From a virus (lineage: Duplodnaviria > Heunggongvirae > Uroviricota > Caudoviricetes), in the IMG/VR virus record IMGVR_UViG_2648501400_000018: DNA of 32,660 nt; one strand, written 5' to 3'. Both the position numbers and the translations under genes were made by a program. The notes beneath the pieces were generated by a model, which was not told where the DNA came from, searched no databases, and saw only the letters and a list, made by a program, of their open reading frames with translations. How positions within the stretch are numbered: position 1 is the stretch's first letter; each line of letters starts with the position of its first letter. Below are positions 3,549-32,660 of the stretch, one piece after another.

Positions 3549-3557
3549 AACTCCCCC

Positions 3558-7084: not shown

Positions 7085-7094
7085 TGCGCTCTCC

Positions 7095-7319: not shown

Positions 7320-7400
7320 TTGTTCCCTCTGAGCTATTATGTACTCAATTGGGTTTATTGTACGTACTCAAACGGGCAAGTCAACGACTAATATGCACAA
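7320..7400. promoter_or_regulatory. Divergent promoter/operator region between ner-like and repressor-like genes with two direct repeats
   Basis: Imperfect direct repeats TATTATGTACTCAA (about 7335-7348) and TATTGTACGTACTCAA (about 7356-7371) sharing GTACTCAA, in the 81 bp gap between divergent regulators. Confidence 0.4.
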
Positions 7401-7811: not shown

Positions 7812-7849
7812 AGTGTTCTCATTAAGAACAAAACATGAAGGACTATGTT

Positions 7850-8371: not shown

Positions 8372-8448
8372 ACATGTTGTAAACAAAACAAAAAAGCGTG
8401 CAGACAGCACGCATTTACTATCTAACTCTACTGAAGGTTTCAGATTCT

Positions 8449-9480: not shown

Positions 9481-10685
9481 GTATCAGTTTTGAGCAACTG
9501 GTGGGATTGTACAGGCAGATTACTTTCGGTAACGATATGGCCGAAGGTACGCTGGTGCTTACCCCAGAATCCTGCGAGTTGCTCAACGCTTTGCTTGAGG
9601 ACACCGATACATATGGGATCTCTCTGGCACAAGGTGAAGTAGTGGCTGGCCAGCAGGTGTCGCTTTTTGTGAACGCACCAAAGACAAAGCTAGGTCTGCT
9701 ATGCCGTAATTTGGCGGCTTTGTTAAAGTCGCCAAAACACCAAAGCGAGGAACCTTCCCGCTACTACCTGATCGACAGCCAATTTTATAGTTCGGATGCG
9801 CCAACATCCGTAATTGAAAACTACCGCACTATCTTAACATTTCTGCGCCTGCTTAAAGAAAAGTCGGCATACTTTGATACCAGTGCATATGAATGCGTTT
9901 TTTTCCGTGCCGATGTATTTAAATTACCTATACGTTACAGTGCAGAAACCGTAGAAAATCTTGATAAAACGACACTCGATGAACTCATTCAGCAGTTTTC
10001 TGACGACACACACAAAGAGCAGAAACTCTCGCTTTTAATTGAAAGCATCCAGTTAATCGGCCAGGAAACGGAAAACAATAAAGTCTTTGAGTATGCACTG
10101 AAGAACATTGATAAATTAAAAGTTGAGTTCGATAAGGGTTATCGCCTCTTCACTTCTGGGTTCTCATACGAAAAGGTTCTGGATGAACTTAGAACCGCCA
10201 AAGTTGAAGAAATGGGACGTATCCATAAAGTCTTTTCAGATATCCAAAACCAGATACTGGGTATCCCAGTCGCAACCATTATCGTCGCGACACAAATCAA
10301 GAAAGCAAGTGGTGATGTCTATCAAACCATTATCAATAGAGCAGTTTTTTTAGGGGCCTTTGTTTTTGCTACGTTGGTTATGTTGACTTTGTTCAACCAG
10401 TTACAGACGTTAACTGCTATCAAAGAAGAACTTCGACATAAAAAGACTCAGGTTGATAAAAAATATGCATCAATAAAAAATGACATTGATAGTATCTTTT
10501 GCTCTGTACGTAAACGTCTTTGCCGTCAGGTTATTGCGTTCTGGTTTATTATTATGTTCCTTGTTGTCGCTATTATATCGACAGGATTAATTTACCTATA
10601 CTGCACATACCCTGAAACATGGAATATCTTGGTTACAAAAGTGATGTCATGGCGGCATCACTTGAGCAATAAGCCCACTCCTTAA
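9477..10685 (+). CDS. Membrane protein with two C-terminal transmembrane helices, translationally coupled to the NdpA-like gene
   Basis: GTG start overlaps the upstream stop (GTGA); about 270 aa soluble N-domain then AVFLGAFVFATLVMLTLF and VIAFWFIIMFLVVAIISTGLIYLY. Confidence 0.5.
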   Translation: MSISFEQLVGLYRQITFGNDMAEGTLVLTPESCELLNALLEDTDTYGISLAQGEVVAGQQVSLFVNAPKTKLGLLCRNLAALLKSPKHQSEEPSRYYLIDSQFYSSDAPTSVIENYRTILTFLRLLKEKSAYFDTSAYECVFFRADVFKLPIRYSAETVENLDKTTLDELIQQFSDDTHKEQKLSLLIESIQLIGQETENNKVFEYALKNIDKLKVEFDKGYRLFTSGFSYEKVLDELRTAKVEEMGRIHKVFSDIQNQILGIPVATIIVATQIKKASGDVYQTIINRAVFLGAFVFATLVMLTLFNQLQTLTAIKEELRHKKTQVDKKYASIKNDIDSIFCSVRKRLCRQVIAFWFIIMFLVVAIISTGLIYLYCTYPETWNILVTKVMSWRHHLSNKPTP

Positions 10686-10750
10686 ACCCCTTTAAAAGCC
10701 TTCCTGCCAGCCATCCCCCACACTGCCTTCATCACCCAATGGAGGCACTT

Positions 10751-15024: not shown

Positions 15025-16499
15025 TGCCACGCGGAATTTACGTTACCCCTACCGAGTTTGTTTCATTCAGCGAGCCGACCAAAAATCTGTCAGAGCAAAT
15101 CGCCGTTCGTTCGCGCTCCATTGATTTCTACGGGCTGGGAATGTACCTGCCCAATCCCGATCCCATTCTTAAAGCGCAGGGGCGCGATATCAAAATCTAC
15201 CGCGAACTGCGTAGCGATCCCTTAGTTGGCGGCTGTATTCGTCGACGCAAGGCAGCGGTCAAGGCGCTGGAGAACGGCGTCGAACGTGGCAATGCCACGG
15301 CGCGGGTGTTTCGCTTTGTGCGTGATCTGTTTGATGATTTGGATATTTCACGCATTACGGGCGAGATGACCGACTCTGTTCTCTACGGCTATCAGCCATG
15401 TGAACTGATGTGGACACGCGGCGGTAAATCCTGGGCGGTGTCTGATGTGGTGGGTAAGCCTCCGGAGTGGTTCCAGTTCGATATGGAAAACCGCCTGCGC
15501 TTTCGTGCTCGCAATGCCGGGCTGGAGGGCGAGCTGACGCCGCCGTATAAGTTCCTGTTGCCGCGTCAGGATGCGACCTACGATAACCCGTATGGCTTCC
15601 CTGATTTGTCGATGTGCTTCTGGCCCGTCACCTTCAAAAAAGGCGGCATGAAGTTCTGGGTGCGCTTTGCCGAGAAGTACGGCTCGCCGTGGGTTGTTGG
15701 CAAGCATCCGCGCGGTACGTCGCAGGGCGAGATTAACCAGTTACTGGATTCGCTGGAGGCGATGATTGAGGACGCCGTGGCCGCTATCCCGGACGATTCT
15801 TCTGTAGACATCAAAGAGGCGGCAGGTAAAGCCGACAGCAGCGATATCTACCAGAACCTGATCACCCTGTCGCGCGGTGAGATTTCTATTGCGCTGCTGG
15901 GGCAGAATCAGACCACTGAAGCCAGCGCCAACAAAGCCTCGGCGCAGGCCGGGCTGGAGGTGACTGATGATATCCGTGACGGTGATGCATCCATTGTAAC
16001 CAGCGCGTTTAACCAGCTTATCCGCTGGATTGTGGAACTGAACTTCGGTGCGGTGGACTGCCCTGTGTTCCGTATGTGGGAGCAGAAAACGGTTGATGAG
16101 GTGCAGGCCGGACGCGACCAGAAACTGTCGCAGTCAGGCGTCAAGTTCACCCCGCAATACTGGAAGCGCGAGTATCAGTTACAGGATGGCGATATCGACG
16201 AAACCCCGGCACCTGCATCGTTGGCGTTCGCTGAGGCGGTAGCCGCAGACGTGGCTGCGCAGGAGCTGCTGGACGCGGCGCTGGATGAACTGATGACCAG
16301 CGGCAAGCTGGACGATACGCTGACGCCGGTGCTGGCTCCCTTGTTTGCGCGGGTACAAAACGGCGTCGCGCCAGCGGTGTTGATGGGCGAACTGGCGGAG
16401 CTGTACCCGCAGATGAACACCGACGACCTTACAGAACGGCTGGCGCGTGTGTTGTTTGTGGCGAATATCTGGGGGCGGCTCAATGAGCGTCACGAGTAG
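15024..16499 (+). CDS. Portal protein (Mu gp29-like)
   Basis: 491 aa ORF following the large terminase; size and synteny typical of Mu-like portal proteins. Confidence 0.7.
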   Translation: MPRGIYVTPTEFVSFSEPTKNLSEQIAVRSRSIDFYGLGMYLPNPDPILKAQGRDIKIYRELRSDPLVGGCIRRRKAAVKALENGVERGNATARVFRFVRDLFDDLDISRITGEMTDSVLYGYQPCELMWTRGGKSWAVSDVVGKPPEWFQFDMENRLRFRARNAGLEGELTPPYKFLLPRQDATYDNPYGFPDLSMCFWPVTFKKGGMKFWVRFAEKYGSPWVVGKHPRGTSQGEINQLLDSLEAMIEDAVAAIPDDSSVDIKEAAGKADSSDIYQNLITLSRGEISIALLGQNQTTEASANKASAQAGLEVTDDIRDGDASIVTSAFNQLIRWIVELNFGAVDCPVFRMWEQKTVDEVQAGRDQKLSQSGVKFTPQYWKREYQLQDGDIDETPAPASLAFAEAVAADVAAQELLDAALDELMTSGKLDDTLTPVLAPLFARVQNGVAPAVLMGELAELYPQMNTDDLTERLARVLFVANIWGRLNERHE

Positions 16500-17304
16500 T
16501 GAGTTAGCCTATTGCCTGAGTCTGCCGCCAAAGCGGGCCATCGGCTATCTGGAGTCCAAAGGCTATACCCTGTCGTGGGACTGGGAGGAGGTCTGGCAGG
16601 AAGCTCACGCCCACGCTTTTACCGTCGCGAAGGTGACAAAGCTGGATATACTGGAAGATATCCGCCGCGCGCTGGAGCGGTCACTGGCGGAGGGCAAAAC
16701 CGGCGCGTGGTTTCGTAAGGAACTGGAGCCGGTGTTGAAAGAGAAAGGCTGGTGAGGCGAGAAAGAAATCACCGACCCGGACACCGGGGAAGTGACCATC
16801 ATCCAGCAAGGCAGTTCCTGGCGACTTGATACCATCTACCGCACCAATATGACGGTGGTTTACAGTGCCGGGCGCTGGGCCGAGCAGATGGAAAACGTCG
16901 ACGATCGTCCATATGGGATGTACTGTGCCATTTGCGACAACCGCACCCGTCAACCCCACCTCCTGCTGCATCAGATGGTCATGCGTCTTGATGATCCATT
17001 CTGGCAGTCATTCTACCCGCCTAACGGCTGGGGGTGCCGCTGTACAGTGATAGCAATGACTGAGGCGGATGTCCGCCGCCGCAGGCTGAAAATCACGGCC
17101 TCCGGCGATGCGCTGGGGGAAACGATGAAACTGATATCGATGCAAACCGGAGAATTGCAACCGGTGGCCACCTTTACTATTGGCAATACGATTATCACCC
17201 CAGATGCGGGCTGGTCATACGCGCCGGGCGCGGCGTACCGCCCGGACTTAGCCAAATACCAGGGCGTGCTCGCGCCGCTGGCGCAACAGGAGCTGGCACC
17301 ATGA
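16483..17304 (+). pseudogene. Head morphogenesis protein F-like (Mu gp30 / SPP1 gp7 family) interrupted by an in-frame TGA at 16753-16755
   Basis: ORFs 16447-16755 and 16792-17304 are in the same frame, separated by one TGA (…KEKGW*GEKEITDPDTGE…) with 12 open codons between; the downstream part carries the Phage_Mu_F-like motif DNRTRQPH...DDPFW...PPNGWGCRCT. Confidence 0.5.
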
Positions 17305-19118: not shown

Positions 19119-19370
19119 ATGGCAAATCATTTACAGGGTAAACGCGTCGTTAACCCTATCCTGACCACCGTTGCGCGTGGCTATAAAAACGCGGCGTTTA
19201 TCGGGGAGAAGATTTTCCCGGTGGTGGAGATGGATAAAGAAGGCGCAACGGTGCCGACGTTCGGCAACGGCGTGTTTGCCGTCTATGAGACGAAACGCGC
19301 CGTGGGTGCTGACAGTAACGTCATGATCCGTGAGAAAACCGGTAAAGCTGGACGCAGTGACATATATTGA
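19119..19370 (+). pseudogene. Short ORF of uncertain identity joined out of frame to the sheath gene (possible 5' remnant of the major capsid gene, or an aberrant sheath N-terminus)
   Basis: 83 aa ORF in the position where Mu-like phages carry the major head gene T; terminates inside the start of the sheath reading frame (overlap 19330-19370). Confidence 0.3.
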
Positions 19371-20703: not shown

Positions 20704-21027
20704 ATGAAAGACACTTTCGAACTGCAATACCCTTTCACCGCGCCCTCCGGGCAGCACATCGACGAACTGCAACTGACCCGCCTGAAGGTGAAGGATATGC
20801 GCGCTGCGCGCCGTATCAGCGACAAACCGGAGGACTGGGATGAACCGCTGCTGGCGGCGATGACCGGGCTGGTGCCGGAAGATTTAGCTGAAATGGATCT
20901 GGCGGATTACCAGGCATTGCAGAAACGATTTCAAAACATGCTTGGGCTGGGCGGCGAATCCGCAGCAACTGTGGCAGGCGATGGCACTGCTGGCGCGGTG
21001 GTTTCGGTTTCAGCCGGGGGAAATTGA
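20704..21027 (+). CDS. Tail assembly chaperone (P2 gpE-like)
   Basis: 107 aa ORF between tube and tape-measure genes; low-complexity G/A/S-rich C-terminus; overlapped by an out-of-frame extension ORF. Confidence 0.55.
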   Translation: MKDTFELQYPFTAPSGQHIDELQLTRLKVKDMRAARRISDKPEDWDEPLLAAMTGLVPEDLAEMDLADYQALQKRFQNMLGLGGESAATVAGDGTAGAVVSVSAGGN

Positions 21028-21103
21028 CGGGCTGGCGGTGGATGATTTTGAGCGCTGGCTGGATGAGGCCAGCGCGCAGATTAAGCGTGAGAGCGGAAGC
21101 TGA
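20888..21103 (+). CDS. Out-of-frame extension of the tail chaperone (E'-like), reachable only by translational frameshift
   Basis: The +1 frame is open from about 20888 to a TGA at about 21101-21103 and reads protein-like sequence (NPQQLWQAMALLARWFRFQPGEIDGLAVDDFERWLDEASAQIKRESGS); slip site not identified. Confidence 0.4.
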   Translation: MKWIWRITRHCRNDFKTCLGWAANPQQLWQAMALLARWFRFQPGEIDGLAVDDFERWLDEASAQIKRESGS

Positions 21104-21382: not shown

Positions 21383-24070
21383 GTGGCTGCTGAATTTTCA
21401 ATCGGTGTGGTGATTAAAGGGATGATGGCGGGTTCGCTGTTGTCGGCTATTGGCGGAACGCAAAAAACCTTAAAAGGGCTGGAATCCACCACCGCACGCC
21501 TGAAAAAGCAACATGCAGATATGACGCAGGAACTGGCGCGTAATACCAATGGCAGCACCGAAGCCACGGCGCGACTAAACCGCGAGTTACAGAGTGTGGG
21601 CAGGACGCTGGAGAACCTGAAACTGCGGCACGATAACTTAGCTAACGCTGCCAGCCGGAGCGCTGCGCTGCGCTCCCAGCGCATGGAACTTTACGGACGC
21701 GGTCTGGAGACGATGGCGCAGGCAAAGGTAGTGTCGTCCCCCGTTGTTGCCTCGGTAAAACAGTATGCCGCCTTTGAGTCCGGGCTGCGTGATATCGCCG
21801 TGACGGGGGATCTGGACAGTAAGCAGGAGGCAGCAATTGGCAATGCCATTCGTCAGGCGGCAGGTCAGGTTAACCAGATGCAGGAGACGTTGCTTGGCGG
21901 CGTGAATCAACTGGTGGCTGATGGCATGAATCCAGAGAAAGCGGCAAATATGATTGGCCTGCTGGGTAAAACAGCCACCGCCACCGGCGCTGATATGACC
22001 GACCTGGCGAAAATGACCTATGCCTTCAGCGACGCGCTAAAAATCGGCGATGGCAAGGAGATGGAAGAGGCCTTTGCGCTGGCCGCTGCGGGTGCCAAAA
22101 CCGGCTCTTTTGAGCTGAAAGATATGGCAAAAGCGTTGCCGACGCTGGCAAAAAGTTTTGCCGCCAAAGGTATTACTGGCCCGGAGGCGATCAAGGAAAT
22201 TATTGCTTCACTGGAGCTGGGAAAAGGTGCAGGTTCGGCGGAGGAAGCCGTCACCAACATGACCAACTGGATGGGGGCGATGACGCGCGGTGACACTATC
22301 AAGAAATATGAAAAAGCGGGCGTGAAATATGATGCCTCCATGCAGGATTATGTTGCCAAGGGGTATTCGCAGTACGAAGCCTCGCTGATGATTGCCAATG
22401 AGTTTATTGACGGGAAAGGTGCGGCCTTTAAAAAGCAATGGGAGGCTGCGGGGGCAAAAGGCGACGGTGAAGCACAGCAAAAATTGATGGAATCCTTTGG
22501 TCTGTCAGAAATCTTTACCGATATCCAGACCGTCAACCATTTGCTGTCAATGCGTCAGAACTGGAGTCAGTACCAGACTAAAAAAACACAGATGGCGACC
22601 CCGGAAGCGCAAAAGACGCTGGATACCGACTTCGCAAAACAGGGCGATACGCTGGAGGCTCGTTGGCGAAAATCACAGGTTGCGCTGAATGAAGTGGCGT
22701 TGAGTATCGGCAGTTCGTTGTGCCCGGCGCTGATATCGCTGATGGATACCGTGGTGCCGTGGCTTGATGCGCTGGGGAAATGGGCAGCGGCGAACCCGGA
22801 AATTATCGCCGGGATCGGGAAAGCGGCGGCGGGATTTTTTGTTATTAAAAGTTCGATGATTGGCACCCAGATTGTGGCCAACTATTTATTTTCCACCTGG
22901 GCGGGCGGCGCAAAGGCGATTGCATTACTGGCTGCAAAAGGTACGCAGTTAAAAGCTGCCTTTTCCGTTGGTGGTAAACTGGCAGGCATCACTAAGTTGT
23001 TCGGCTCACTGGCGCGTGGCGCGTTGTCACTGGGTAAAATACTCGGTGGCGGACTCCTGCGCGGTCTGATGATGGCAGGACGCGCGGTGTTGTTTTTGGG
23101 CCGGGCGCTGATGATGAATCCCATCGGTCTGATCATCACCGGCATCGCCGTGGCCGCGTATCTGATTTACCGCTACTGGGGGCCGATTTCCGCTTTCTTT
23201 AAGCGGCTGTGGGCGCAGGTCACGGTAGCGTTTCGTGGGGCGTGGAGCGGCATCAAAGGTATCTGGAGTGGTGTGTCGGGCTGGTTCTCTGGTATCTGGG
23301 CGCAAATCAAAACCGCGTTCAGCGGCGGGATTGGCGGCGTGGCAAAGCTGATTACCAACTGGTCGCCGCTGGGCCTGTTCTATAAAGCCTTTGCCGGGGT
23401 GATGAAATACTTCGGTATTGATATGCCGAAAAACTTTACCGATTTTGGCGGCAATCTGATTAACGGTCTGGTGAACGGTATCGGCAATGCGCTGACTGCC
23501 GCGAAAGAGACGGTCGTTAACTTTGGTAACTCGATTTCAGGCTGGTTTAAGGAGACGCTGGGGATTCATTCCCCCAGCCAGGTGTTTGCCGGGTTCGGCG
23601 ACAATATCGCGCAAGGGGCCGCTATCGGTATCAACCGCACCGCCCCGGATGCGATTTCCGCCAGCCAGCAGATGGCACAGGCATTGATTCCACCCGCACC
23701 GGGTATCGTTGTTCCGGGCATTGCGGTGTCGGCCATTCCCCGACAGTCAGACGTTATGTTACATGGTGCTATGGGTGCGGCGCTGTCACAACCAAAACCA
23801 TTGCCGCCGATAACCCCCGGTGTCGCAGTCCCTGCTGTTCCTGAACTGCCGAAAAGTACCGCGCCAGCCGCCAAAGGCCGCAATGCCAGTGCGCACGTAC
23901 CGGGGCAGTCGTCCGGGGTGAATGTCACCTTCGCGCCGCAAATCACTATCAAAGGCGCAGCCTCAACGACCGAAGGTGAAATCACCTCGGCGCTGAAACT
24001 GAGCCTGCACGAACTGGAGAAGATGATGGAGCGGATTATGGCGCGTCGTGAACGCCGGGAGTATGCGTAA
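21383..24070 (+). CDS. Tail tape measure protein
   Basis: 895 aa ORF downstream of the chaperone/frameshift pair; long helical A/K/Q-rich regions and G/W-rich hydrophobic repeats (GIWSGVSGWFSGIWAQIKTAFSGG) typical of tape measure proteins. Confidence 0.75.
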   Translation: MAAEFSIGVVIKGMMAGSLLSAIGGTQKTLKGLESTTARLKKQHADMTQELARNTNGSTEATARLNRELQSVGRTLENLKLRHDNLANAASRSAALRSQRMELYGRGLETMAQAKVVSSPVVASVKQYAAFESGLRDIAVTGDLDSKQEAAIGNAIRQAAGQVNQMQETLLGGVNQLVADGMNPEKAANMIGLLGKTATATGADMTDLAKMTYAFSDALKIGDGKEMEEAFALAAAGAKTGSFELKDMAKALPTLAKSFAAKGITGPEAIKEIIASLELGKGAGSAEEAVTNMTNWMGAMTRGDTIKKYEKAGVKYDASMQDYVAKGYSQYEASLMIANEFIDGKGAAFKKQWEAAGAKGDGEAQQKLMESFGLSEIFTDIQTVNHLLSMRQNWSQYQTKKTQMATPEAQKTLDTDFAKQGDTLEARWRKSQVALNEVALSIGSSLCPALISLMDTVVPWLDALGKWAAANPEIIAGIGKAAAGFFVIKSSMIGTQIVANYLFSTWAGGAKAIALLAAKGTQLKAAFSVGGKLAGITKLFGSLARGALSLGKILGGGLLRGLMMAGRAVLFLGRALMMNPIGLIITGIAVAAYLIYRYWGPISAFFKRLWAQVTVAFRGAWSGIKGIWSGVSGWFSGIWAQIKTAFSGGIGGVAKLITNWSPLGLFYKAFAGVMKYFGIDMPKNFTDFGGNLINGLVNGIGNALTAAKETVVNFGNSISGWFKETLGIHSPSQVFAGFGDNIAQGAAIGINRTAPDAISASQQMAQALIPPAPGIVVPGIAVSAIPRQSDVMLHGAMGAALSQPKPLPPITPGVAVPAVPELPKSTAPAAKGRNASAHVPGQSSGVNVTFAPQITIKGAASTTEGEITSALKLSLHELEKMMERIMARRERREYA

Positions 24071-24976
24071 TGTTTGCCGTACTGGGGGATATTGAGTTTG
24101 AGGTGGTGACCTACTGGGACGGCTTTGATGCGTCGTTTGGCATGGATTACGCCGAGCACGCACGCATCGAAGGCAAACCGGGGTTGCAGTTTATCGGCGA
24201 AAAGCTGGATGAAGTCAGCATCAGTCTGGTGTTCCATGACCACTATTGCCAGCCGGATGTTGAACTGGCGCGGCTGCGTGGCGCATCAGGCGCTGGCGCT
24301 GGTGTTCGGCAACGGGGACTATCGCGGCTGGTTTGTGGTAACCGATATTCGGGCGACCAGCCAGCAGACCGATGGCCTCGGTAATGTGCAGGCGTTAAGT
24401 GCAGAGCTGTCGCTGAAGGAGTACATCGGCGATCCGAAAAATCCCCTGACGCCACCGGCTGTGTCCGGGGACGATCCGAATATCGATTCGTGGTCTGACG
24501 ATGCCGACGACAGTTTTTCCGGCAGCGATATGTTCGACGGCCTAAGCGATATTACCGACGGGCTGGATGCGGCATCGGACGCGCTGGATGCCGCAGAGCA
24601 GGCGTTCGATGAGGCAGTGTCGTGGGCGGAAGATGTGGTGGAGCAAGTTGAAGATGCGATTGATGACGTACTTTCACCGCTGGAGGACGTTCTCAATGAG
24701 GTGTTATCACCACTCGATGAGGTGATGCAGGCGCTGGAGGGTATCATGGGCGGCGGCGTACTGACCGATGCTCTCGGCGAGGTCGGGCAAGTCGCCTCGC
24801 AGATTTACGATGAAATCAGCAGTACGTTGACCGGGCTTGACGGTATCACCCCCGACAACTTTGCCGATCTGTTCTCGCAGGCACTGGACGTGGTGCGCAA
24901 CGGTCAGTCATTGATGGAAGCGTGTTCTCCCGCCGTTAGCAGGCTGGCGGCGGCAATCATTACCAGGAGCGTGTGA
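24070..24976 (+). pseudogene. Tail protein gpU-like / Mu DNA-circulation (N)-like gene with a +1 frame change near 24277-24290
   Basis: Frame A (24070-24384) has a gpU-like N-terminus up to ...DVELARLR; frame B (24125-24976) continues the family pattern from ...HQALALVFGNGDYRGWFVVTDI and carries an acidic C-terminal region. Confidence 0.5.
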
Positions 24977-25194
24977 TGGGCGGCTGGATTGAACATATCA
25001 CCACCGAGGGCGAGCGCTGGGATAATCTGGCGTTCCTCTATTACGGCGATCCAATGGGCTATGAGCGCATCATTGTCGCTAACCCCCATATTGCGATCAC
25101 GCCGACACTGGCCTCCGGGCTGCGGTTGCGTATTCCGGTGATCGGCCCGATGCAGGTGCATAACGTTGATGAGGTGCCGCCGTGGCTCAGGTAA
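24973..25194 (+). CDS. Tail protein X-like (LysM-like small tail protein)
   Basis: 73 aa ORF; pattern GERWDNLAFLYYGDPMGYERIIVANPHIAITPTLASGLRLRIP resembles P2 gpX. Confidence 0.6.
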   Translation: MMGGWIEHITTEGERWDNLAFLYYGDPMGYERIIVANPHIAITPTLASGLRLRIPVIGPMQVHNVDEVPPWLR

Positions 25195-26282
25195 ATGCCG
25201 TTATCACCCCCGTTTTCACCCTGTTTTACGGGCAGAAAGATATCACTCACGATATTGCTCCTTTTGTCCTGAGCGTGACGTATACCGACAGTCTCAAGAG
25301 CGAATCGGATGAAATCGACGTGCAGGTGGAAGACACCGCCGGGCGCTGGCGCGAGGCGTGGTATCCGGGCAAAGGCGATATGCTGATGCTGAAGTTGGGC
25401 TATCAGGGCGAAGCGTTGCTGGACTGTGGAGCGTTCTCCATCGATGAGATTGAGCTGGGCGCACCGCCGGATACGGTATCCATTCGCGGCGTGGCGACGT
25501 CGGTCAACAGCGCTCTGCGTACCGCCTCCAGCGAGGGCTACGAAGAGACGACGCTGGATGCGATTGCCAGCCGTATCGCGCAGAAGCATGGTCTGAAGCT
25601 GGTCGGTCAGATAGAGCCGATTACCATTGACCGGGTGACGCAATACGCGGAAACCGACGTCGGTTTTCTGAAGCGGCTGGCGGGTGAGTATGGTTATGCG
25701 CTGAAAGTCACCACTGGCGAGCTGGTGTTTTCCCATCTGGCTACACTGCGAAGTAACGCGCCGGTGACGACGCTGACGCCGCAGGATGTAGCGCGCTGGT
25801 CGCTGCGCGATACCATCAACCGCATCTATAAGGATGCAAAGGTGGCGCATCAGAAGAGTAAAGAGAAGACGCTGGTGACGTACCACGCCGACGGCCCGCC
25901 GACCACGGAGACGCGTGGTAAATCGACCAGCGCCGATACGCTCAAGGTCAATGCACGGGCGGCGGATCAGGGGACGGCGCAGGTGAAAGCCGAGGCGGCG
26001 CTGGATGACCATAACGAGTATCAGCAGACCGGTTCGCTCTCGATGATGGGCAACACGCAGCTTATCGCCGGGAACAAAATCACTCTCGACGGGTTCGGCG
26101 TGCTCTCCGGGGAGTGGCTGATCACCAGCGCCCGTCACTCGTTTGACCGTTCATCGGGCTACAGCACCGAAATTGAGGTCGGACGTGGCCCGAAAACGGC
26201 CTCCGGCGGCGGGAAGAAGAAAAAACCGGATACGCTGACCGTCTATCACCCGGACGGCCCACCCACCCAGGAGAAAAAATGA
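25182..26282 (+). CDS. Baseplate hub / late control D-like tail protein
   Basis: 366 aa ORF immediately upstream of the gpV-like spike gene; size and synteny as P2 gpD / Mu P-like proteins. Confidence 0.55.
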   Translation: MAQVNAVITPVFTLFYGQKDITHDIAPFVLSVTYTDSLKSESDEIDVQVEDTAGRWREAWYPGKGDMLMLKLGYQGEALLDCGAFSIDEIELGAPPDTVSIRGVATSVNSALRTASSEGYEETTLDAIASRIAQKHGLKLVGQIEPITIDRVTQYAETDVGFLKRLAGEYGYALKVTTGELVFSHLATLRSNAPVTTLTPQDVARWSLRDTINRIYKDAKVAHQKSKEKTLVTYHADGPPTTETRGKSTSADTLKVNARAADQGTAQVKAEAALDDHNEYQQTGSLSMMGNTQLIAGNKITLDGFGVLSGEWLITSARHSFDRSSGYSTEIEVGRGPKTASGGGKKKKPDTLTVYHPDGPPTQEKK

Positions 26283-26770
26283 AAGGCGTCACCCGACAGA
26301 CCGGGATTATCAGCGATATCGACGAGGTGAAGGTGTGCGTGCGCGTCACCCTGCCGGAATGCGACGATCTGCGCACCAACTGGCTCCCCATCCTGCAACG
26401 CAATACGCAGGACAATAAGGACTACTGGCTGCCGGATATCGGCGAGCAGGTGGAGGTGCTGCTGGATGATAACGGCGAGGATGGCGTGGTGCTGGGGGCG
26501 GTCTATTCGTCGGTGGATACGCCACCGGTGACGGACAAAGACAAGCGCTATGTGCGGTTCTCCGATAAGGCCGCGATTGAGTACGACCGCAAACAGCACC
26601 AGTTGACCATTAATGGCGGCATTGAAAAAATCGTGATTGAGGTGAAAACCAGCGTCAGCATCACCGCGCCGCAGGTGGTCATCACGGGTAATGTCCGCGT
26701 CACCGGCAATATCAGTGCGTCAGGCTCTATCATCGACGCTGGCGGCAATACCAACCATCACTCTCATTAA
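26279..26770 (+). CDS. Baseplate assembly protein V-like (spike)
   Basis: 163 aa ORF; N-terminal pattern GIISDIDEVKVCVRVTL...WLPDIGEQVEVLL...VVLGAVYSS resembles the P2 gpV N-terminal domain. Confidence 0.65.
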   Translation: MKGVTRQTGIISDIDEVKVCVRVTLPECDDLRTNWLPILQRNTQDNKDYWLPDIGEQVEVLLDDNGEDGVVLGAVYSSVDTPPVTDKDKRYVRFSDKAAIEYDRKQHQLTINGGIEKIVIEVKTSVSITAPQVVITGNVRVTGNISASGSIIDAGGNTNHHSH

Positions 26771-26816
26771 AGCGGTTTAATATCGCCACTTTAGCAACGG
26801 GGGCGACAATGCCCCC

Positions 26817-27176
26817 ATGAGCACACAATCCCATCCTTTAAATCTGCACTGGCAACCGGCCCTGAAACGCGACGGCGAGTACGTCTGTGGGCTGGAGGAT
26901 ATCAGCCAGGCCGTTCACATCATTCTGCGCACGCCGCGCGGTAGCGATCCCCATCGCCCCTTTTTCGGTAGCGACCTGTGGCGCTATATCGACTGGCCTG
27001 CTGAACGGGCGATTCCCCATGTGGTGCGTGAGTCGGTGGAGGCTATCCGCCACTGGGAGCCGCACTGCAAATTTCTCAAAGTGGTGCCGGAACTGGACGG
27101 CGAACATCTCACGCTGCGCATCCAGTGGCGCGCCGCCGATGGCGTTATTAATGAAACGGAGGTGGTATGGCGTTAG
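26817..27176 (+). CDS. Baseplate protein W-like (gp25-like wedge protein)
   Basis: 119 aa ORF; pattern LEDISQAVHIILRTPRGSDPHRPFFGSDL...EAIRHWEP resembles P2 gpW. Confidence 0.65.
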   Translation: MSTQSHPLNLHWQPALKRDGEYVCGLEDISQAVHIILRTPRGSDPHRPFFGSDLWRYIDWPAERAIPHVVRESVEAIRHWEPHCKFLKVVPELDGEHLTLRIQWRAADGVINETEVVWR

Positions 27177-28282
27177 CTGAACCCGATTTTATCGACCGCG
27201 ACCCGGCGCAAATCACCAGTGAGATGATTGCGCAGTATGAAGCGGTGAGCGGTAAAACGCTCTATCCGGCGCAGGCGGAGCGGCTGCTGATTGATGTTAT
27301 TGCCTATCGTGAAAATCTGCTGCGCATCGGCATTCAGGAGGCGGCAAAGCAGAATCTGGTGGCGTTTTCCCGTGCGCCAATGCTCGATTACCTCGGCGAA
27401 CTGGTGGGCGTGAAGCGCCTGCCTGCGCAGGCGGCACAGACCACGTTGCGGTTTTCCGTTGCCAGCGCGCAAAAGCGCAATGTGCTGATCCCGGAGGGCA
27501 CCCGCGCCAGCGCGGCCAACAGCGTGATGTTTGCCACCGATGACGATGTGCTGCTGCCAGCCGGAAGTCTGAGCGTCGATGTCACGGCCACATGTACCAC
27601 CGCTGGCGTTGTGGGTAATGGCTGGCAACCGGCGCAGATTAGCGCACTGGTGGACAGCGTGGCAGGTGTCGATTTGCAGGTGACGAACATTACCGCGTCC
27701 GGCGGCGGCTGCGCCGATGAAAGCGACGACGCCCTGCGCGAGCGTATCCGGCTGGCTCCTGAAAGTTTCAGTAACGCGGGGAGTTATGGCGCATACCGCT
27801 TTCATGCGCTGTCAGTCAGCCAGGCGATTATCGACGTGGCCATCCTCGGCCCGGATGAGGGGCTGGATGAAGGTTGCGTGGAGATTTACCCGCTGACGCA
27901 GGACGGTCTGCCGGGCGATGAGTTGCTGGCACAGGTGGTGCAGGATGTCAGTAAAGAGAAGAAACGCCCGTTGACCGATAAGGTAAGCGCGAAGAAACCA
28001 CTGCGCGTGGCATATCAGATTAACGCGCAACTCACGCTATTCACTAAAGCCGATCAGGACTCGACGCTGCTGGCCGCGCGTAAGGCCATCGCCGACTGGA
28101 CGGCAGAGCGCGAGCGCCATCTGGGGCGGGATATCGTCCCCAATCAAATCATCAAAGTGTTGCAGGTGGCGGGTGTCTATGACGTGGCGCTGGAAACACC
28201 TGCCAAACGAGTGCTCGCGGCACATGAGTGGGCGCAGTGTACCTCGATTGATGTGACCATCGCCGGGGTGAGCGATGGATAA
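27167..28282 (+). CDS. Baseplate protein J-like
   Basis: 371 aa ORF after the W-like gene with overlapping start; size and synteny of P2 gpJ. Confidence 0.65.
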   Translation: MALAEPDFIDRDPAQITSEMIAQYEAVSGKTLYPAQAERLLIDVIAYRENLLRIGIQEAAKQNLVAFSRAPMLDYLGELVGVKRLPAQAAQTTLRFSVASAQKRNVLIPEGTRASAANSVMFATDDDVLLPAGSLSVDVTATCTTAGVVGNGWQPAQISALVDSVAGVDLQVTNITASGGGCADESDDALRERIRLAPESFSNAGSYGAYRFHALSVSQAIIDVAILGPDEGLDEGCVEIYPLTQDGLPGDELLAQVVQDVSKEKKRPLTDKVSAKKPLRVAYQINAQLTLFTKADQDSTLLAARKAIADWTAERERHLGRDIVPNQIIKVLQVAGVYDVALETPAKRVLAAHEWAQCTSIDVTIAGVSDG

Positions 28283-28985
28283 GTTACCGCTTCAACCGCC
28301 GCTCGCCGGGGATGAACGCTTTACCCGGCTGGCAAATCTTGCCGCTGAACGCTTCGCACAACTCGATCTGACCGCGCTTCTGATTTATCTGGTGGATGCC
28401 ACGGCGCTGCCGTCGCTGGCAGAACAGTTCCACGTTCAGGGGCTGGAAGGCTGGCTGTTTGCCCGCGATGAGCGACAAAAGCGCGATCTGATCAAGCAGG
28501 CCATTGAGCTGCACCGCTATCGCGGTACGCCGTGGGCAGTGCGTCAGGTACTGAAGATTCTGGCGTTGGACGGCGATATCAGCGAGTGGTTTGAGTATGG
28601 CGGTAAGCCGTACTTTTTCCGCATGGATGTCACGCTTGAGACGCGCGGGCTGACTGAGGATGAATTTAACGCGCTGATTGTGCTGATCCATGAGTACAAG
28701 AACGTCCGCTCAAAGCTGGAGATGCTGACTATCTGGCTGATTAACCAGAGCCAGATCCCGGTTATCGCCAGTGCTGTTCAGGGCGGCGAGATTGCTACCG
28801 TTCTGCCGTGGATTGCGGAGAGCGTGAGTCAGTCGTCTGCGGTTTATCTGGCGACGGAGTGTTTGAGTGCAGAGGTGGTAACGGTGTTGCCTCCGCTGCA
28901 TGGCAATGTTGAGCAGACCAGCGTTATGAGTGTTGGAGCGGGCTGCTGGAGTATTGAGTTTGTCACTGTTTACCCGGAGGAGTAA
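28275..28985 (+). CDS. Tail protein I-like (baseplate)
   Basis: 236 aa ORF between the J-like gene and the tail fibre gene, overlapping both, as P2 gpI. Confidence 0.6.
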   Translation: MDKLPLQPPLAGDERFTRLANLAAERFAQLDLTALLIYLVDATALPSLAEQFHVQGLEGWLFARDERQKRDLIKQAIELHRYRGTPWAVRQVLKILALDGDISEWFEYGGKPYFFRMDVTLETRGLTEDEFNALIVLIHEYKNVRSKLEMLTIWLINQSQIPVIASAVQGGEIATVLPWIAESVSQSSAVYLATECLSAEVVTVLPPLHGNVEQTSVMSVGAGCWSIEFVTVYPEE

Positions 28986-30685
28986 TGGCGAGTGAATTTT
29001 TTACCATTTTAACCGCCGCTGGCCGCGCGAAGATTGCTGCGGCGCTGGCGGAACAAAAGCAGATAGTGCTGCAAACAATGGTCGTTGGCGACGGCGGCGG
29101 GCAGTATGCCGAACCGAAAGAGAGCCAGACAAAGGTGGTGCGTGAAGTCTGGCGCGGGTCACTGAATACGCTGAAAATCGCCCCGGAAAACCCGGCGTGG
29201 GTGATTGCCGAGGCGGTACTGCCGGAAGCGAAAGGCGGCTGGTATATCCGCGAGGTGGGATTGCTGGATATGGACGGCGTGCTGATTGCCATCGGCAAGT
29301 TCCCGGAAACCTATAAGCCGAAGCTGCCTGCCGGGGCCAGTAAGCAAATTGTGATCCGCGCTGTGATGGAAGTGACGAACGCGGCGGCGGTAACGCTGAT
29401 GGTTGATCCGTCGCTGGTGATGGCAACGGTAGATTATGTGGACTCCAGTATTGAAGAGCACGAAAGATCACATAATCACCCGGACGCAACGCTGACGCAG
29501 AAAGGCTTTACGCAGCTTAACAGCTCCACCAATAGCACGCTGGAAACGCAGGCAGCAACGCCGAAGGCGGTGAAGGCGGCGATGGATAAGGCGAATGAGG
29601 CACTGGAAAAAGCTGGGGCTGATAAAGCGCATAAACATCCGTGGGCCGATATTACCGGGGTGCCGGATGGGACAACGGCGCAGAAAGGGGTTGTGAAGCT
29701 TAATAGCTCAACGAACAGTACCAGTACGACGGAGGCTGCGACACCGAGTGCGGTTAAGGCGGCATATGACCTGGCGAATGGTAAGGCGGCGGGGAGCCAT
29801 AAACATGCCTGGGGCGATATTACCGGGGTACCGGATGGCACTACGGCGCAAAAAGGGATCGTAAAGCTCAACAGCGCGACGAACAGCACCAGTACTACCG
29901 AAGCGGCCACGCCCGGCGCAGTGAAGGCGGCGTATGACCTGGCGAACGGGAAAGCGGCTTCCAGCCATACTCACGCATGGAGTCAGATTACCGGCGTACC
30001 GGATGCAACTACAGCGCAAAAAGGGGTTGTGAAGCTTAATAGCGCGACGAACAGTACCAGTACGACTGAAGCCGCAACGCCGAGCGCGGTTAAGGCGGCG
30101 TATGACAAGGCGAATACAGCAATCTCCAGTTTTGCTCTTTTCACGTCGAATGGGACGTTTACGGTGCCAGTCGGGGTAACGAAAGTGATGGTGGAAATGA
30201 TTGGAGGTGGAGGTGGTGGCGGCGGCGGTGGTGTGGGTGGTGGTGAGCGAATTGGTTATCCGACAGCAGGTAAACCATCACTTTTTGTTCAAGGGATTGT
30301 TGCTGTGAACTCTGGACAAAATGTAACCGTCACAGTCGGCGGAGGCGGTGTTGGGGGATCATCAAAAGTAGATACTGGTGGTGGTTCGATGACCGGGAGT
30401 AATGGGTACGCCGGAGGAAACTCAATTTTCTTAACGCTCACTTCTGTTGGTGGTAGCGGCGGCGGCGGTGCATTGCCAGATTCTGGTCCTGGCAACGCAT
30501 TAAATGAGCCAGGTTCTGATTCAACGCATGGCTATGGCGGGGGGACTAAGTATAACTCGCAGAAAAATGCCGTAGGTTATGGTTCGAGTGGTGCGGCTGG
30601 TACCTCTAAAGGCGTCAGAACTGTTGAAGGGGACTCTACAGCAGGTGGCAATGGTGCTTCAGGTTTTGTCAGAATATGGTGGTAA
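28985..30685 (+). CDS. Tail fibre protein (P2 gpH-like N-terminus, internal tandem repeats, glycine-rich low-GC C-terminal domain)
   Basis: N-terminus (FFTILTAAGRAKIAAALA...VVGDGGG...VWRGSLN...WYIREVGLLDMDGVLIAIGKFPETYKP) matches the conserved gpH anchor domain; about four repeats of AQKG[VI]VKLNS[AS]TNSTSTTEAATP.AVKAAYD; poly-Gly C-terminus. Confidence 0.75.
   Translation: MASEFFTILTAAGRAKIAAALAEQKQIVLQTMVVGDGGGQYAEPKESQTKVVREVWRGSLNTLKIAPENPAWVIAEAVLPEAKGGWYIREVGLLDMDGVLIAIGKFPETYKPKLPAGASKQIVIRAVMEVTNAAAVTLMVDPSLVMATVDYVDSSIEEHERSHNHPDATLTQKGFTQLNSSTNSTLETQAATPKAVKAAMDKANEALEKAGADKAHKHPWADITGVPDGTTAQKGVVKLNSSTNSTSTTEAATPSAVKAAYDLANGKAAGSHKHAWGDITGVPDGTTAQKGIVKLNSATNSTSTTEAATPGAVKAAYDLANGKAASSHTHAWSQITGVPDATTAQKGVVKLNSATNSTSTTEAATPSAVKAAYDKANTAISSFALFTSNGTFTVPVGVTKVMVEMIGGGGGGGGGGVGGGERIGYPTAGKPSLFVQGIVAVNSGQNVTVTVGGGGVGGSSKVDTGGGSMTGSNGYAGGNSIFLTLTSVGGSGGGGALPDSGPGNALNEPGSDSTHGYGGGTKYNSQKNAVGYGSSGAAGTSKGVRTVEGDSTAGGNGASGFVRIWW
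29477..30118 (+). repeat. Tandem coding repeats (about 168-183 bp period, about 3.7 copies) inside the tail fibre gene
   Basis: Repeat units start at about residues 171, 232, 288 and 344 of the fibre protein; nucleotide-level near-identity is visible between units. Confidence 0.6.
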
Positions 30686-30688
30686 CAC

Positions 30689-31291
30689 ATGAAATATGCG
30701 TATTTTGAACCCTCATCAATGAAGGTTTTAGACTGGCTGGATACCGAACAATTATCCTTTGTTTTGCCTGACAGTGTTGTTTCGGTAACTGATGAGCAAT
30801 GGTGTTATCGTGATCGTGAATGCTGGGTCAATATTTCAACCACAGAAATCATCACAACACCTCCACCCGGTGATTTTTATCGGCTTGATGGTGATAAGTG
30901 GGTGTATGACGCAACCAGCTATACTGCTGCGCTAGACGGTGCTAAGTCACTAGTTGTTAAGGCAATCAAGGCGCTACGCGATGAAGTCACTGCCGATTAT
31001 ATCATTATCGGCGACTATCACTTTCACAGCGATGCCAGCAGTCGTATCCAGCAAATGTCACTCACCAGGATGGGGCAAACGAAGCAAATCCCCAAAGGCT
31101 TAATGTGGCAGACCAAAAACCTCGGACTTCTCGAGCTAACCAATGAAATCGCGGCGCAGTTTGAGTCCATTACAATGGATCACGATATGCGCCTCTTTGC
31201 CAATGCCCAGCGACATATTGCCGCCGTTGAGGCGCTGGAAGATATCCTGGCAGTTCAGGAGTATGACTACTCTACGGGGTGGCAACCATGA
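30689..31291 (+). CDS. Hypothetical protein downstream of tail fibre (possible fibre assembly/accessory protein)
   Basis: 200 aa ORF starting 4 nt after the fibre stop; AT-rich like the fibre C-terminus; no motif recognised. Confidence 0.3.
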   Translation: MKYAYFEPSSMKVLDWLDTEQLSFVLPDSVVSVTDEQWCYRDRECWVNISTTEIITTPPPGDFYRLDGDKWVYDATSYTAALDGAKSLVVKAIKALRDEVTADYIIIGDYHFHSDASSRIQQMSLTRMGQTKQIPKGLMWQTKNLGLLELTNEIAAQFESITMDHDMRLFANAQRHIAAVEALEDILAVQEYDYSTGWQP

Positions 31292-31740
31292 GGCCGGTGT
31301 ATCTGGCGTTCTATAAAGGGCGAGCCGATCATCATGGGTTCGCACGTCTTTCCGACTGGCTGACGCGGCTGGTGACGCGGGGTGAGTATTCTCACTGCGA
31401 GCTGGCTGTTGACCAGGGTAACGGCGAGTTTCTTTGTTATTCGTCGTCGGTGCGTGACAAGGGGGTGCGCTGTAAGCAAATGCCGCTGCCACTCGATAAA
31501 TGGGATCTTATCGCGCTAAATGCGCTACCAACCAGTGTGGAGCAGTTCTTCCGTCGAAACGACGCCATGAAATATGACTGGCTGGGGGCTGTGGGATTCG
31601 TTGTTTTTAATCGTGGACGGGAGAACAAATATTTCTGTAGCGAGTTTTGCGCAGATTTTCTTGGACTGGTCGATAGCTGGCGTTATTCACCCAATATGCT
31701 CCACGCGCTGGCCAGCAGTATTCAGACTATGAAGTTATAA
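31288..31740 (+). CDS. Hypothetical protein (Cys/His-containing, possibly enzymatic)
   Basis: Start placed at internal ATG giving an ATGA overlap with the upstream gene; motifs YSHCELAV and KYFCSEFCADF; function unknown. Confidence 0.3.
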   Translation: MRPVYLAFYKGRADHHGFARLSDWLTRLVTRGEYSHCELAVDQGNGEFLCYSSSVRDKGVRCKQMPLPLDKWDLIALNALPTSVEQFFRRNDAMKYDWLGAVGFVVFNRGRENKYFCSEFCADFLGLVDSWRYSPNMLHALASSIQTMKL

Positions 31741-31886
31741 GGGAAACAGCGACCAGAGTCAGGCGGTCACCTGACTCTGACCAGCTAACCCGCAGGAAGT
31801 GTCTGCGAGCCGCCCAGGGCTGCCACTGATGGCCATCAGTCCAATAAGCCTAACAGTTTTTCACATACTGAAAAAGGTTTGCAGAA

Positions 31887-32660
31887 ATGAAAACATTACC
31901 CATTATTCCGTGGCCCGGCGGTAAGCGTCGTCTGGCCAAAAAGTTATTACCGTTATTTCCTGAGCACCAGTGTTATGTAGAGCCATTCTGCGGCGGTGCA
32001 GCCTTGTATTTCATGAAGGAGCCGGTTGAAGCTGAAGTCCTGAACGATATCAACGGCGAACTGGTGAATCTGTACCGTGTGGTTAAAAATCATCTTGAAG
32101 AGTTTGTGCGCCAGTTCAAGTGGGCGTTGAGCAGCAGGCAGATTTTTGAATGGTCGAAAATGACCATCCCGGAGACGCTAACTGATATTCAGCGTGCAGC
32201 GCGGTTTTATTATCTCCAGAAGCAATCATTCGGAGGGAAAGTGGAATCACAGACGTATGGAACGGCGACCACTTCTGCACCACGGCTTAATCTGCTAAGG
32301 CTGGAAGAGGAGTTGAGCGCCGCCCATTTGCGGCTATCACGCACGTTTGTAGAACATTTACCGTGGCGTACCTGCATTGAGAAGTATGATCGCCCGCACA
32401 CACTGTTCTATTGCGATCCCCCGTATTGGGGAACGGAGGGCTACGGTGTTGAATTTGGACTGGAGCAGTACACCCAACTTGCAGAGTTGGCCAGAACGAT
32501 AAAAGGCAGGATGTTGATCAGTGTGAACGATATCCCGGAGATGCGTGAAACCTTTGCGGACTTGTCGATTGATACGGTAGATATTCGCTATACGTTGAGC
32601 GGTGGGCCTAATGCTAATCGCTCGAAAGTCAGCCGTGAGCTGGTCATTCGTAACTGGTAA
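31887..32660 (+). CDS. Dam-family (D12-class) N6-adenine DNA methyltransferase
   Basis: N-terminal SAM-binding pattern PGGKRRL...CYVEPFCGGAALYF; catalytic DPPY in LFYCDPPYWG; C-terminal RMLISVND; arrangement parallels E. coli Dam. Confidence 0.75.
   Translation: MKTLPIIPWPGGKRRLAKKLLPLFPEHQCYVEPFCGGAALYFMKEPVEAEVLNDINGELVNLYRVVKNHLEEFVRQFKWALSSRQIFEWSKMTIPETLTDIQRAARFYYLQKQSFGGKVESQTYGTATTSAPRLNLLRLEEELSAAHLRLSRTFVEHLPWRTCIEKYDRPHTLFYCDPPYWGTEGYGVEFGLEQYTQLAELARTIKGRMLISVNDIPEMRETFADLSIDTVDIRYTLSGGPNANRSKVSRELVIRNW

Follow-up and report, generated by a model that had tools for sequence, protein, structure and literature searches.

An inherited 11-bp deletion splits a GpU-like gene, the predicted tail-tube initiator gene of a Mu-like prophage, across two reading frames

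The window, the whole 32,660-nt stretch of viral DNA analysed here, carries directly behind its tape measure gene a GpU-like tail gene that has lost 11 bp and is now read in two pieces, in two frames. The deletion very probably pseudogenised the tube-initiator gene in a Mu-like prophage that already carried inactivating lesions; since such lesions are present and the deletion is inherited, ordinary prophage decay accounts for the broken gene, and no new mechanism is called for. The prophage itself is a Mu-like transposable element with a P2-type tail, inserted beside efeB. The features on which the analysis relies are the following.

21383..24070, + strand: tape measure gene, 895 aa; its TAA overlaps the next ATG (TAATG), and the identical protein matches Pfam PhageMin_Tail
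24070..24279, + strand: 5' part of the GpU-like (predicted tube-initiator) gene, native codons 1-70; PF06995, PHROG 788 and identity to protein P0122
24277..24280, + strand: deletion junction, GTGACGCAATG missing after 24277; alignments, with re-insertion restoring P0122
24280..24384, + strand: out-of-frame tail, 34 aberrant codons (GASGAGAGVRQRG...) and then TAA; ORF reading
24278..24976, + strand: 3' part of the GpU-like gene, codons 74-305, +1 frame; PF06995, PHROG 788 and identity to P0122
24976..25194, + strand: gpX-like (tail protein X) gene with its own AGGAG at 24965-24969; PF05489 family, PHROG
25182..26282, + strand: gpD-like baseplate hub gene, the predicted assembly partner of the tube initiator; PF05954, PHROG
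16753..16755, + strand: W91* nonsense codon (TGG>TGA) in a Mu F-like head morphogenesis gene (16483-17304); locus comparison
19343..19344, + strand: junction of a 2,834-bp deletion from head gene to sheath gene; locus comparison
28386..28387, + strand: 9-bp in-frame deletion (ACCTGGTGG) in a gpI-like gene, a lineage marker; locus comparison

The gene order is tape measure, tube initiator, gpX and gpD, so that the initiator sits between tape measure and hub. The tube-like domain continues in its 3' part to about 24430; this part also encodes the acidic helix-rich domain and ends in a TGA at 24974-24976 that overlaps the gpX start (TGATG). The tail module downstream of the broken gene is intact. 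Through the 2,834-bp deletion, the major head gene, which starts at 19119, is fused at codon ~75 to sheath codon ~221 in the wrong frame, and the gpI-like product with the 9-bp deletion has 236 instead of 239 aa.

The frame change in the tube-initiator gene is real, and the switch lies within about 3-6 nt of 24281/24284, where the first-pass annotation had put it. The ORF that begins at the ATG (24070-24384, 104 aa) matches positions 1-72 of the Pfam profile PF06995 (Phage_P2_GpU; E=1.5e-18, 67 bits), and positions 71-119 are found in the +1 frame when it is translated from 24278 (E=4.6e-11, 42.8 bits). Membership was defined as a whole-domain match above the PF06995 gathering score of 27.5 bits, and the window copy passes this cut-off only as two fragments in two frames. 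PHROG 788 is split likewise, the first frame covering profile positions 1-75 and the second 75-296; together, the E-values and the adjoining profile coordinates put such a split far beyond chance. The native reading ends with codon 70 (24277-24279) and resumes at 24278, the two parts being identical to residues 1-70 and 74-305 of the intact 305-aa protein P0122, which is on record on 212 contigs. Two further expectations held: residues 74-305 of P0122 carry the 3' part into the acidic domain, and the baseplate or tail-tip protein is truncated, the first frame giving a product of 104 aa against the 305 aa of P0122. After the shift this frame runs through its aberrant codons to the TAA at 24382-24384, and the two ORFs overlap over 24125-24384. 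The exact 104-aa product is absent from the recorded called genes; a 282-aa product, P0121, is a gene-caller call from the second frame.

The junction is uncertain over a 3-nt GTG microhomology, and the deletion is bordered by the imperfect direct repeats GTGaCGCA and GTGgCGCA. It removed codons D71, A72 and M73 together with two bases of V74; A72 and M73 are conserved in at least 90% of the sequences across 38 family members. Alignments of the window with two E. coli relatives (87.7% identity), with the related locus L004 and with the closer locus L011 (99.8% identity) all reveal this 11-bp gap. Re-insertion of the missing bases gives a 918-nt ORF whose translation is exactly P0122, and the repaired translation matches PHROG 788 in full.

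The comparison set comprised ten loci from contigs with an identical tape-measure protein. Five of them (L010, L012, L014, L015 and L017) have the deletion junction, and in the other five (L008, L009, L011, L013 and L016) the 11 bases are present between otherwise identical flanks; they are also present in all outgroups examined. The character matrix of shared SNPs and indels is fully nested. L009 and all deleted loci have Mu F W91*, the 9-bp deletion in gpI and three SNPs in common, the gpU 11-bp deletion and one SNP are common to the six deleted sequences, and the 2.8-kb deletion with four SNPs is confined to the window and L010. The gpU deletion arose once, on one branch of this matrix, and was inherited vertically. 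The lesions followed one another in a definite order, with the Mu F nonsense codon (W91*) and the gpI deletion older than the gpU deletion, and the 2.8-kb head-to-sheath deletion the youngest. Deletion, inheritance and lesion order are observations made on these loci. Because the insertion is of the Mu type, the shared site is a marker of common descent, and the lesions can thus be ordered in time; the alignments of L009, L010 and L012 to L011 are continuous from the prophage into the efeB flank, the host flank being compared on the right side. L010 matches the window with 100% identity across 21,278 bp and may come from the same isolate, so the independence of the evidence rests on L012, L014, L015 and L017.

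A junction pattern fitting both alleles was matched by three sequences in IMG/VR, all of them intact alleles, and had no match in the GTDB representative genomes, among which a protein-based scan found only one relative, in Lelliottia wanjuensis, with 74% identity. Among 50,697 phage records, megablast found no match to the gene. NCBI labels the host lineage 'E. coli', and PADLOC reported no defence system on the low-GC island. A cluster of 39 SNPs relative to L004 was considered as a special mark of this locus and rejected, as the closer L011 (99.8%) shows L004 to be a mosaic relative.

The first-pass annotation had suggested, as the cause of the frame change, a single-base insertion near 24280. 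Such an insertion fits the net +1 change, given that a loss of 11 bp also shifts the frame by +1 and therefore mimics a one-base insertion, and without a reference sequence both causes look alike. Comparison with the two E. coli relatives, L004 and the ten loci replaces it with an 11-bp deletion: all alignments to intact alleles show an 11-bp gap and no extra base, the conserved D71, A72 and M73 are absent from both frames, and no homopolymer occurs at 24270-24290, so that the insertion can practically be dismissed. It is extremely unlikely that the real gene is intact and the junction a sequencing or assembly artefact. The only window-identical assembly, L010, may be the same isolate, and the evidence consists of assemblies rather than reads; however, the junction is found in four further assemblies from different runs and projects (SRR30991827, SRR12769711, GCA_015138655.1 and GCA_012596395.1), which differ from the window elsewhere and retain the head-sheath region. 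These independent assemblies stand in for the read-level check that the first-pass annotation had suggested. Moreover, the deletion allele co-segregates with SNPs in the nested pattern, and the loss of 11 bp outside a homopolymer would be an atypical platform error.

A programmed ribosomal frameshift, or two truly separate overlapping genes, might be suspected from the overlap of the ORFs and from the 282-aa call in the second frame, and among phage tail modules a programmed shift is known, in the chaperone pair that precedes the tape measure. The probability of either is negligible, since the 99.8%-identical sister alleles form one continuous 305-aa ORF and all more distant family members (294-327 aa) are single ORFs as well; two separate overlapping genes in homologues had been named as a refutation of the frame change, and the homologues show one continuous gene. 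In addition, the break interrupts one Pfam domain close to where a predicted helix ends, no XXXYYYZ slippery heptamer occurs within 24125-24384, and any shift product would still lack the three conserved residues. That the 3' part, with its acidic helix-rich domain, is expressed alone and retained for a host-beneficial role is very unlikely, even though its ORF is open for 283 codons, the tail module behind it is intact and several isolates still carry the allele. Neither a promoter nor a terminator was predicted by scans of 23800-25300, in-frame starts lie only far upstream inside the overlapping first ORF, and the nonsense codon and the 2.8-kb deletion testify to undirected decay elsewhere in the prophage; with a handful of SNPs, the clade is too shallow for a selection test. 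Some low-level product may nevertheless be made from the 3' part.

Pseudogenisation by the 11-bp deletion thus remains the preferred explanation, and its course can be outlined. Slipped-strand mispairing between GTGaCGCA and GTGgCGCA probably produced the deletion, judging from the repeat structure alone, and it struck a prophage whose Mu F-like head gene already contained a nonsense codon. The frame shift would yield a product of 70 native and 34 aberrant residues, lacking the predicted beta-hairpin region of the tube-like domain as well as the whole helical domain. Loss of the initiator alone would be expected to abolish tail-tube assembly, and the sub-lineage of the window later gained the 2.8-kb head-to-sheath deletion.

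The family and fold of the intact protein also belong to the observations. Intact alleles match positions 1-119 of PF06995 with 126.9 bits (E=4e-37 for the 327-aa E. coli allele), and P0122 covers the 297-position PHROG 788 profile end to end (E=2e-94); by profile match, the long form with two domains thus already has an entry among catalogued phage families (PHROG 788). The C-terminal domain of ~170 aa is helical and strongly acidic (pI ~4, with 39 D+E against 3 K+R), and offers no obvious DNA-binding surface. The AF2 model of the intact allele (pLDDT 89.6) has a helix at 62-74, strands at 79-82, 88-104 and 110-121, and helices at 142-301; a first AF2 run on a shallow alignment, in which the GpU domain had pLDDT <50, was discarded. 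The top Foldseek matches were the Mu baseplate (9ki1), Milano (8fqc), phage 7-7-1 (9rku) and pyocin R2 (6u5b), with probability 1.00 for Mu 9ki1, Milano 8fqc_U1, pyocin 6u5b_g, diffocin 8v3w, PVC 9qgl_7A and AFP 6rbk_A. Leading these matches, at 310-356 aligned columns, are two-domain proteins from Mu, Milano and 7-7-1; the best of them is to chains 0 and u of 9ki1, with E=4.7e-9 over about 310 columns. From their length and architecture these chains are probably gp43/N, which makes the earlier label 'U/N-like' an apt one. A family profile built on a more diverse alignment matched 6u5b chain h, 'Ripcord PA0626' (E=2.7e-7); PDB sequence searches with the single protein or a shallow alignment returned only coiled-coil and helical-bundle noise from the C-terminal domain. 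The structural model identifies the intact protein as a predicted tail-tube initiator composed of a tube-like domain and an acidic helical domain. By homology, it would form a hexameric ring on the hub and nucleate tube polymerisation.

Mu N (gp43), the 'DNA circularization protein', is injected with the DNA, and binds and circularises the DNA ends. A tentative and rather doubtful proposal is that the long GpU form is its functional counterpart among these Mu-like phages, a tube initiator that also serves as an injected holder or protector of DNA ends, the LysM module having become a separate protein, gpX. The long form occurs in Mu-like prophages of all three lineages sampled, namely the Escherichia lineage of the window, Salmonella (P0077) and Klebsiella (P0054). 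The Pfam model DNA_circ_N had no match at E<=0.1 in either fragment or in the intact 327-aa allele, and the protein contains no LysM or tail-X match to either Pfam or PHROG. This proposal concerns the intact family; the window copy is dead either way.

For annotation, the ORFs in 24070-24976 should be recorded as one tube-initiator (GpU/Mu N-like) pseudogene, not as two proteins nor as a 282-aa protein, and the prophage should be flagged as defective on account of the Mu F nonsense codon, the tube-initiator frameshift and the head-to-sheath deletion. The frame change is an already known kind of event and brings no new biology; its value is that of a small, clean example of stepwise, time-ordered prophage decay.

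The tube initiator of P2 consists of six copies of gpU seated on the trimeric gpD hub (bioRxiv 10.64898/2026.09.14.750843). The intact form of the gene in the window resembles P2 gpU in belonging to PF06995 and in the order tape measure, U, X, D. The protein differs from gpU in being about twice as long (305 aa) and in carrying an acidic helical C-terminal domain of ~170 aa; lengths of about 160-190 aa also occur in its family. The gene lies in a Mu-like, not a P2-like, genome, and the window copy is a pseudogene. For Mu, gp43/N has been described as a tube initiator that includes a helix-rich domain (PMC11915804). It has in common with the GpU-like gene a layout of tube-like and helix-rich domains, a position directly after the tape measure gene and a transposable phage as carrier. 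[quoted passage not shown] The intact allele also lacks a DNA_circ_N match at E<=0.1, and a circularisation role for it is hypothetical. The initiators of the R2 pyocin (PA0626), of the eCIS, PVC and AFP particles and of diffocin have in common with it only the tube-like domain of ~130 residues, over which 6u5b_g, 8v3w, 9qgl_7A, 6j0n_b and 6rbk_A superpose with rmsd values of 3.7-5.8 A; in the 290-residue chain of PA0626, the match is best over residues 166-286. Within PHROG 788, P0122 matches in one piece and the window copy in two pieces and two frames. Finally, there is no substantive difference from the frameshift pseudogenes of other decaying prophages, with which the gene has in common an intact orthologue, an inherited lesion and lesions in other virion genes; the nested series at a single Mu-type insertion makes it an unusually clean example of the kind.

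After the tape-measure gene, the gpU-like tail gene of the window is divided between two reading frames, according to the ORF list and, for the two gpU-like ORFs, the sequence:

21383-24070: tape-measure gene
24070-24384: first gpU-like ORF, 104 codons, from ATG at 24070 to TAA at 24384
+1 frame, ending in TGA at 24976: second, long gpU-like ORF, overlapping the first

The 104-codon ORF matches positions 1-72 of the Pfam profile PF06995 (Phage_P2_GpU; E=1.5e-18), the +1-frame translation from 24278 matches positions 71-119 (E=4.6e-11), and the PHROG 788 match divides at the same point (profile 1-75, then 75-296). This two-frame signal is far beyond chance, and both splits bear out the frame change described in the first-pass annotation, with coordinates right within a few bases.

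The cause proposed there, a single-base insertion near 24280, is contradicted by every alignment, all of which show 11 missing bases and none extra. A relative at 87.7% identity is present in two E. coli chromosomes; in one of them, OkiPb01694, the gpU-like gene is a single intact ORF of 327 codons, and the DNA alignment shows 11 bases missing from the window and no base added. Closer relatives, namely the mosaic L004 and ten loci encoding an identical 895-aa tape measure (L008-L017), were recovered through exact-protein look-ups. L004 is 99.3% identical to the window over 23824-32660, the only indels between them being 11 bp missing from the window after 24277 and 9 bp missing in frame after 28386, and L011 is 99.8% identical to the window. 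The intact junction CTGC-GTGACGCAATG-GTGGCGCAT is found in L008, L009, L011, L013, and L016, and the deleted junction CTGC-GTGGCGCAT in the window, L010, L012, L014, L015, and L017. Putting GTGACGCAATG back into the window gene yields a 918-nt ORF whose translation is identical to P0122, a 305-aa intact allele on record in 212 contigs and labeled E. coli by NCBI. With the 11 bases, the window gene lost D71, A72, M73, and two bases of V74; in an alignment of 38 family members, A72 and M73 show conservation of at least 90%. Imperfect direct repeats (GTGaCGCA/GTGgCGCA) lying 11 bp apart, with an exact microhomology of 3 nt, flank the deleted segment and suggest that it was lost through slipped-strand mispairing.

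A sequencing or assembly artefact is contradicted by the same allele recurring across independent assemblies in a nested phylogenetic pattern. Window positions 11383-32660 are 100% identical over 21,278 bp to L010 (Logan assembly of run SRR19671056), which may therefore be the same isolate; L012, L014, L015, and L017, however, belong to different runs and projects and show differences from the window at other sites, so that a local error is ruled out. A programmed frameshift or a pair of genes is likewise contradicted. The homologue comparison that the first-pass annotation had called for reveals one continuous ORF, rather than two overlapping genes, in the sister alleles and throughout the family (294-327 aa); moreover, the break falls inside one domain, three conserved residues are gone, and neither a homopolymer run nor a slippery heptamer was found at the deletion site. 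Separate expression of the C-terminal fragment has no support, as a search of 23800-25300 for a promoter-like site found none and P0121, the 282-aa protein called from the second frame, is a gene-caller product with its first 50 residues out of frame. The frame change is ordinary pseudogenisation through an inherited deletion, of an already-known kind, in a prophage undergoing decay.

The deletion is one of several lesions in the window:

16483-17304: Mu F-like head morphogenesis gene, with TGG>TGA (W91*) at codon 16753-16755
19343/19344 (within 19119-19370): junction of a deletion of 2,834 bp (L011 as reference) that starts at codon ~75 in the major head gene and reaches codon ~221 in the sheath gene
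28386/28387: 9-bp in-frame deletion (ACCTGGTGG) in the gpI-like gene (28275-28985; 236 vs. 239 aa)

A variable-site matrix built against L011 as reference is perfectly nested, and the lesions can therefore be dated in order. L009 shares W91*, the gpI-like deletion, and three SNPs with every gpU-deleted sequence; the window, L010, L012, L014, L015, and L017 have the 11-bp deletion and one SNP in common; two SNPs set L012, L014, L015, and L017 apart as a group; and four SNPs and the 2,834-bp deletion are confined to the window and L010. W91*, present in the window, L009, L010, L012, L014, L015, and L017 and absent in L008, L011, L013, and L016, is thus older than the 11-bp deletion, and the gpI-like deletion, also seen in L009, L010, L012, and L014, serves as a lineage marker. 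The order is therefore the Mu F nonsense mutation and the gpI deletion, next the gpU deletion, and last the head-to-sheath deletion. This last deletion joins the first ~75 head-gene codons to the mid-portion of the sheath gene, out of frame, and eliminates the cement gene, the Mu gp36-like and Gp37 genes, and a 76-aa ORF.

L009, L010, and L012 align with L011 unbroken from the prophage into a shared host flank, efeB; the flank of L008 differs from efeB. Mu-type phages transpose into many sites, so the common junction indicates a single ancestral insertion, with decay passed on vertically. Compared with 5,426 complete E. coli genomes, the efeB flank (L011:21299-22688) is 90-95% identical to most and at most 95.6% identical to any; the NCBI label of these prophage assemblies is E. 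coli, and their host possibly belongs to an outlying Escherichia lineage.

The frame-1 product comprises residues 1-70 plus 34 unrelated residues, without strands 79-121 and the entire helical domain. By homology, it would be unable to form the initiator ring, and tube polymerisation should therefore fail. The gpX start overlaps the old gpU-like stop (TGATG), so its translational coupling is lost; gpX has its own AGGAG at 24965-24969. In the window, the loss of the initiator is moot, since this prophage is defective in other respects too: its Mu F gene is truncated, and most of the major head gene, four head-completion/neck genes, and the N-terminus of the sheath are missing.

Overall, the window is a Mu-like transposable prophage. 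Its gene content includes Mu-type portal, Mu F, Mu gp36, and Gp37 genes, together with a tail module in P2-type order (sheath, tube, chaperones, tape measure, U, X, D, V, W, J, I, fibre) and the following features:

2424-5312: DDE transposase and AAA ATPase genes (annotation of the E. coli relative)
7000-10700: low-GC island between early and lysis genes (GC 0.42-0.48 vs. ~0.58)
7401-7811: HTH repressor-like gene, 136 aa, in the island
8398-9480: NA37 nucleoid-associated protein, in the island
9477-10685: unknown 402-aa protein (PHROG 5023), in the island
20704-21027 and 20981-21103: tail-assembly chaperone pair, 5' of the tape measure
31887-32660: Dam-like DNA methyltransferase, last gene (PF02086 on the identical gene in relatives; PHROG 56)

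PADLOC defence models gave no match to the two larger island proteins and weak, HTH-type matches to the 136-aa product. The stop codon of its last gene marks the exact end of the window, and relatives at other insertion sites diverge ~94 bp past this end; the corresponding end of the 90%-identical OkiPb01694 prophage carries com/mom rather than the Dam-like gene. The GpE-family chaperone ORF is shifted by +1 with respect to the first ORF, where the classical P2 E/E' pair has a -1 relation, and a G5 run (ccgggggaaattga) immediately precedes the stop of the first ORF; the +1 relation also appears in the annotation of the E. coli relative.

Other relatives show further variation in the gpU-like gene. 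In OkiPb01694 (NZ_AP042564.1, L001:3071-4054), RefSeq/PGAP calls only 3071-3508, as a pseudogene 'missing C-terminus'; as the ORF is open over 327 codons and matches PHROG 788-type proteins over its full length, the call seems to be an annotation artefact arising from the unusual C-terminal domain. Relative to this ORF, the window has a 66-bp in-frame length difference at ~24672 (305 vs. 327 aa), in a repetitive acidic 'D-V-L-S-P-L-E/D' region of the helical domain. In E. coli A35 (NZ_CP028740.1, L002 ~3780-3790), the gpU-like gene is independently frameshifted by one C added to a C-run in the helix-rich part, which could be decay or assembly error; the A35 record also flags the tape measure (internal stop) and gpD (frameshift). 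Several family members (P0051, P0053, P0062, P0071, P0098, and P0087) have 181-194 aa and out-of-frame tails past ~residue 140, one being fused to gpD C-terminal sequence; disruption of this gene is common in prophages or draft assemblies. The Salmonella loci L021 and L022, whose protein P0077 represents 1,098 member sequences, hold a Mu-derived cluster with Mor at the start of L022 and the order holin, SLT, Gp37, sheath, tube, tape measure, then long GpU, X, D, and V; the gpV-gpW interval carries an insertion of gtrA, gtrB, and an STM0557-like glycosyltransferase. The cluster has no head genes. It may represent the remnant of a prophage or an element resembling a tailocin.

An AlphaFold2 model of the intact allele, built on a diverse 91-sequence alignment (mean pLDDT 89.6), contains a beta-rich domain at residues 2-121 (one helix at 62-74; strands at 79-82, 88-104, and 110-121), a poorly ordered linker, and helices at 142-301, the long ones at 155-192, 194-230, and 236-261. 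Its best Foldseek matches in the PDB are chains 0 and u of the phage Mu baseplate 9ki1, probably gp43 judging by length and architecture, followed by Milano 8fqc_U1, 7-7-1 9rku, pyocin R2 6u5b_g, diffocin, PVC, AFP, and further baseplates; the family sequence profile reached the pyocin 'Ripcord PA0626' (E=2.7e-7). The P2 tube initiator consists of six gpU copies on the gpD hub trimer (bioRxiv 10.64898/2026.09.14.750843). The Mu initiator is gp43, the classical N 'DNA circularization' protein, with a tube-like domain whose six copies make a 24-stranded barrel and a helix-rich domain touching the wedges (PMC11915804). Given these papers, the structural matches, and the Pfam GpU match, the earlier label 'U/N-like' is apt.

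The intact protein is a member of PF06995 and a full-length member of PHROG 788, so this long GpU form, found in Mu-like prophages in all three lineages sampled, is already catalogued and not new. By analogy, it would work like Mu gp43, and carrying the DNA-end function of Mu N as well is a mildly interesting candidate role. Unlike gp43, however, it is not a sequence-level member of the gp43 family, having no DNA_circ_N match, and its LysM-type partner is encoded by a separate gene, gpX.
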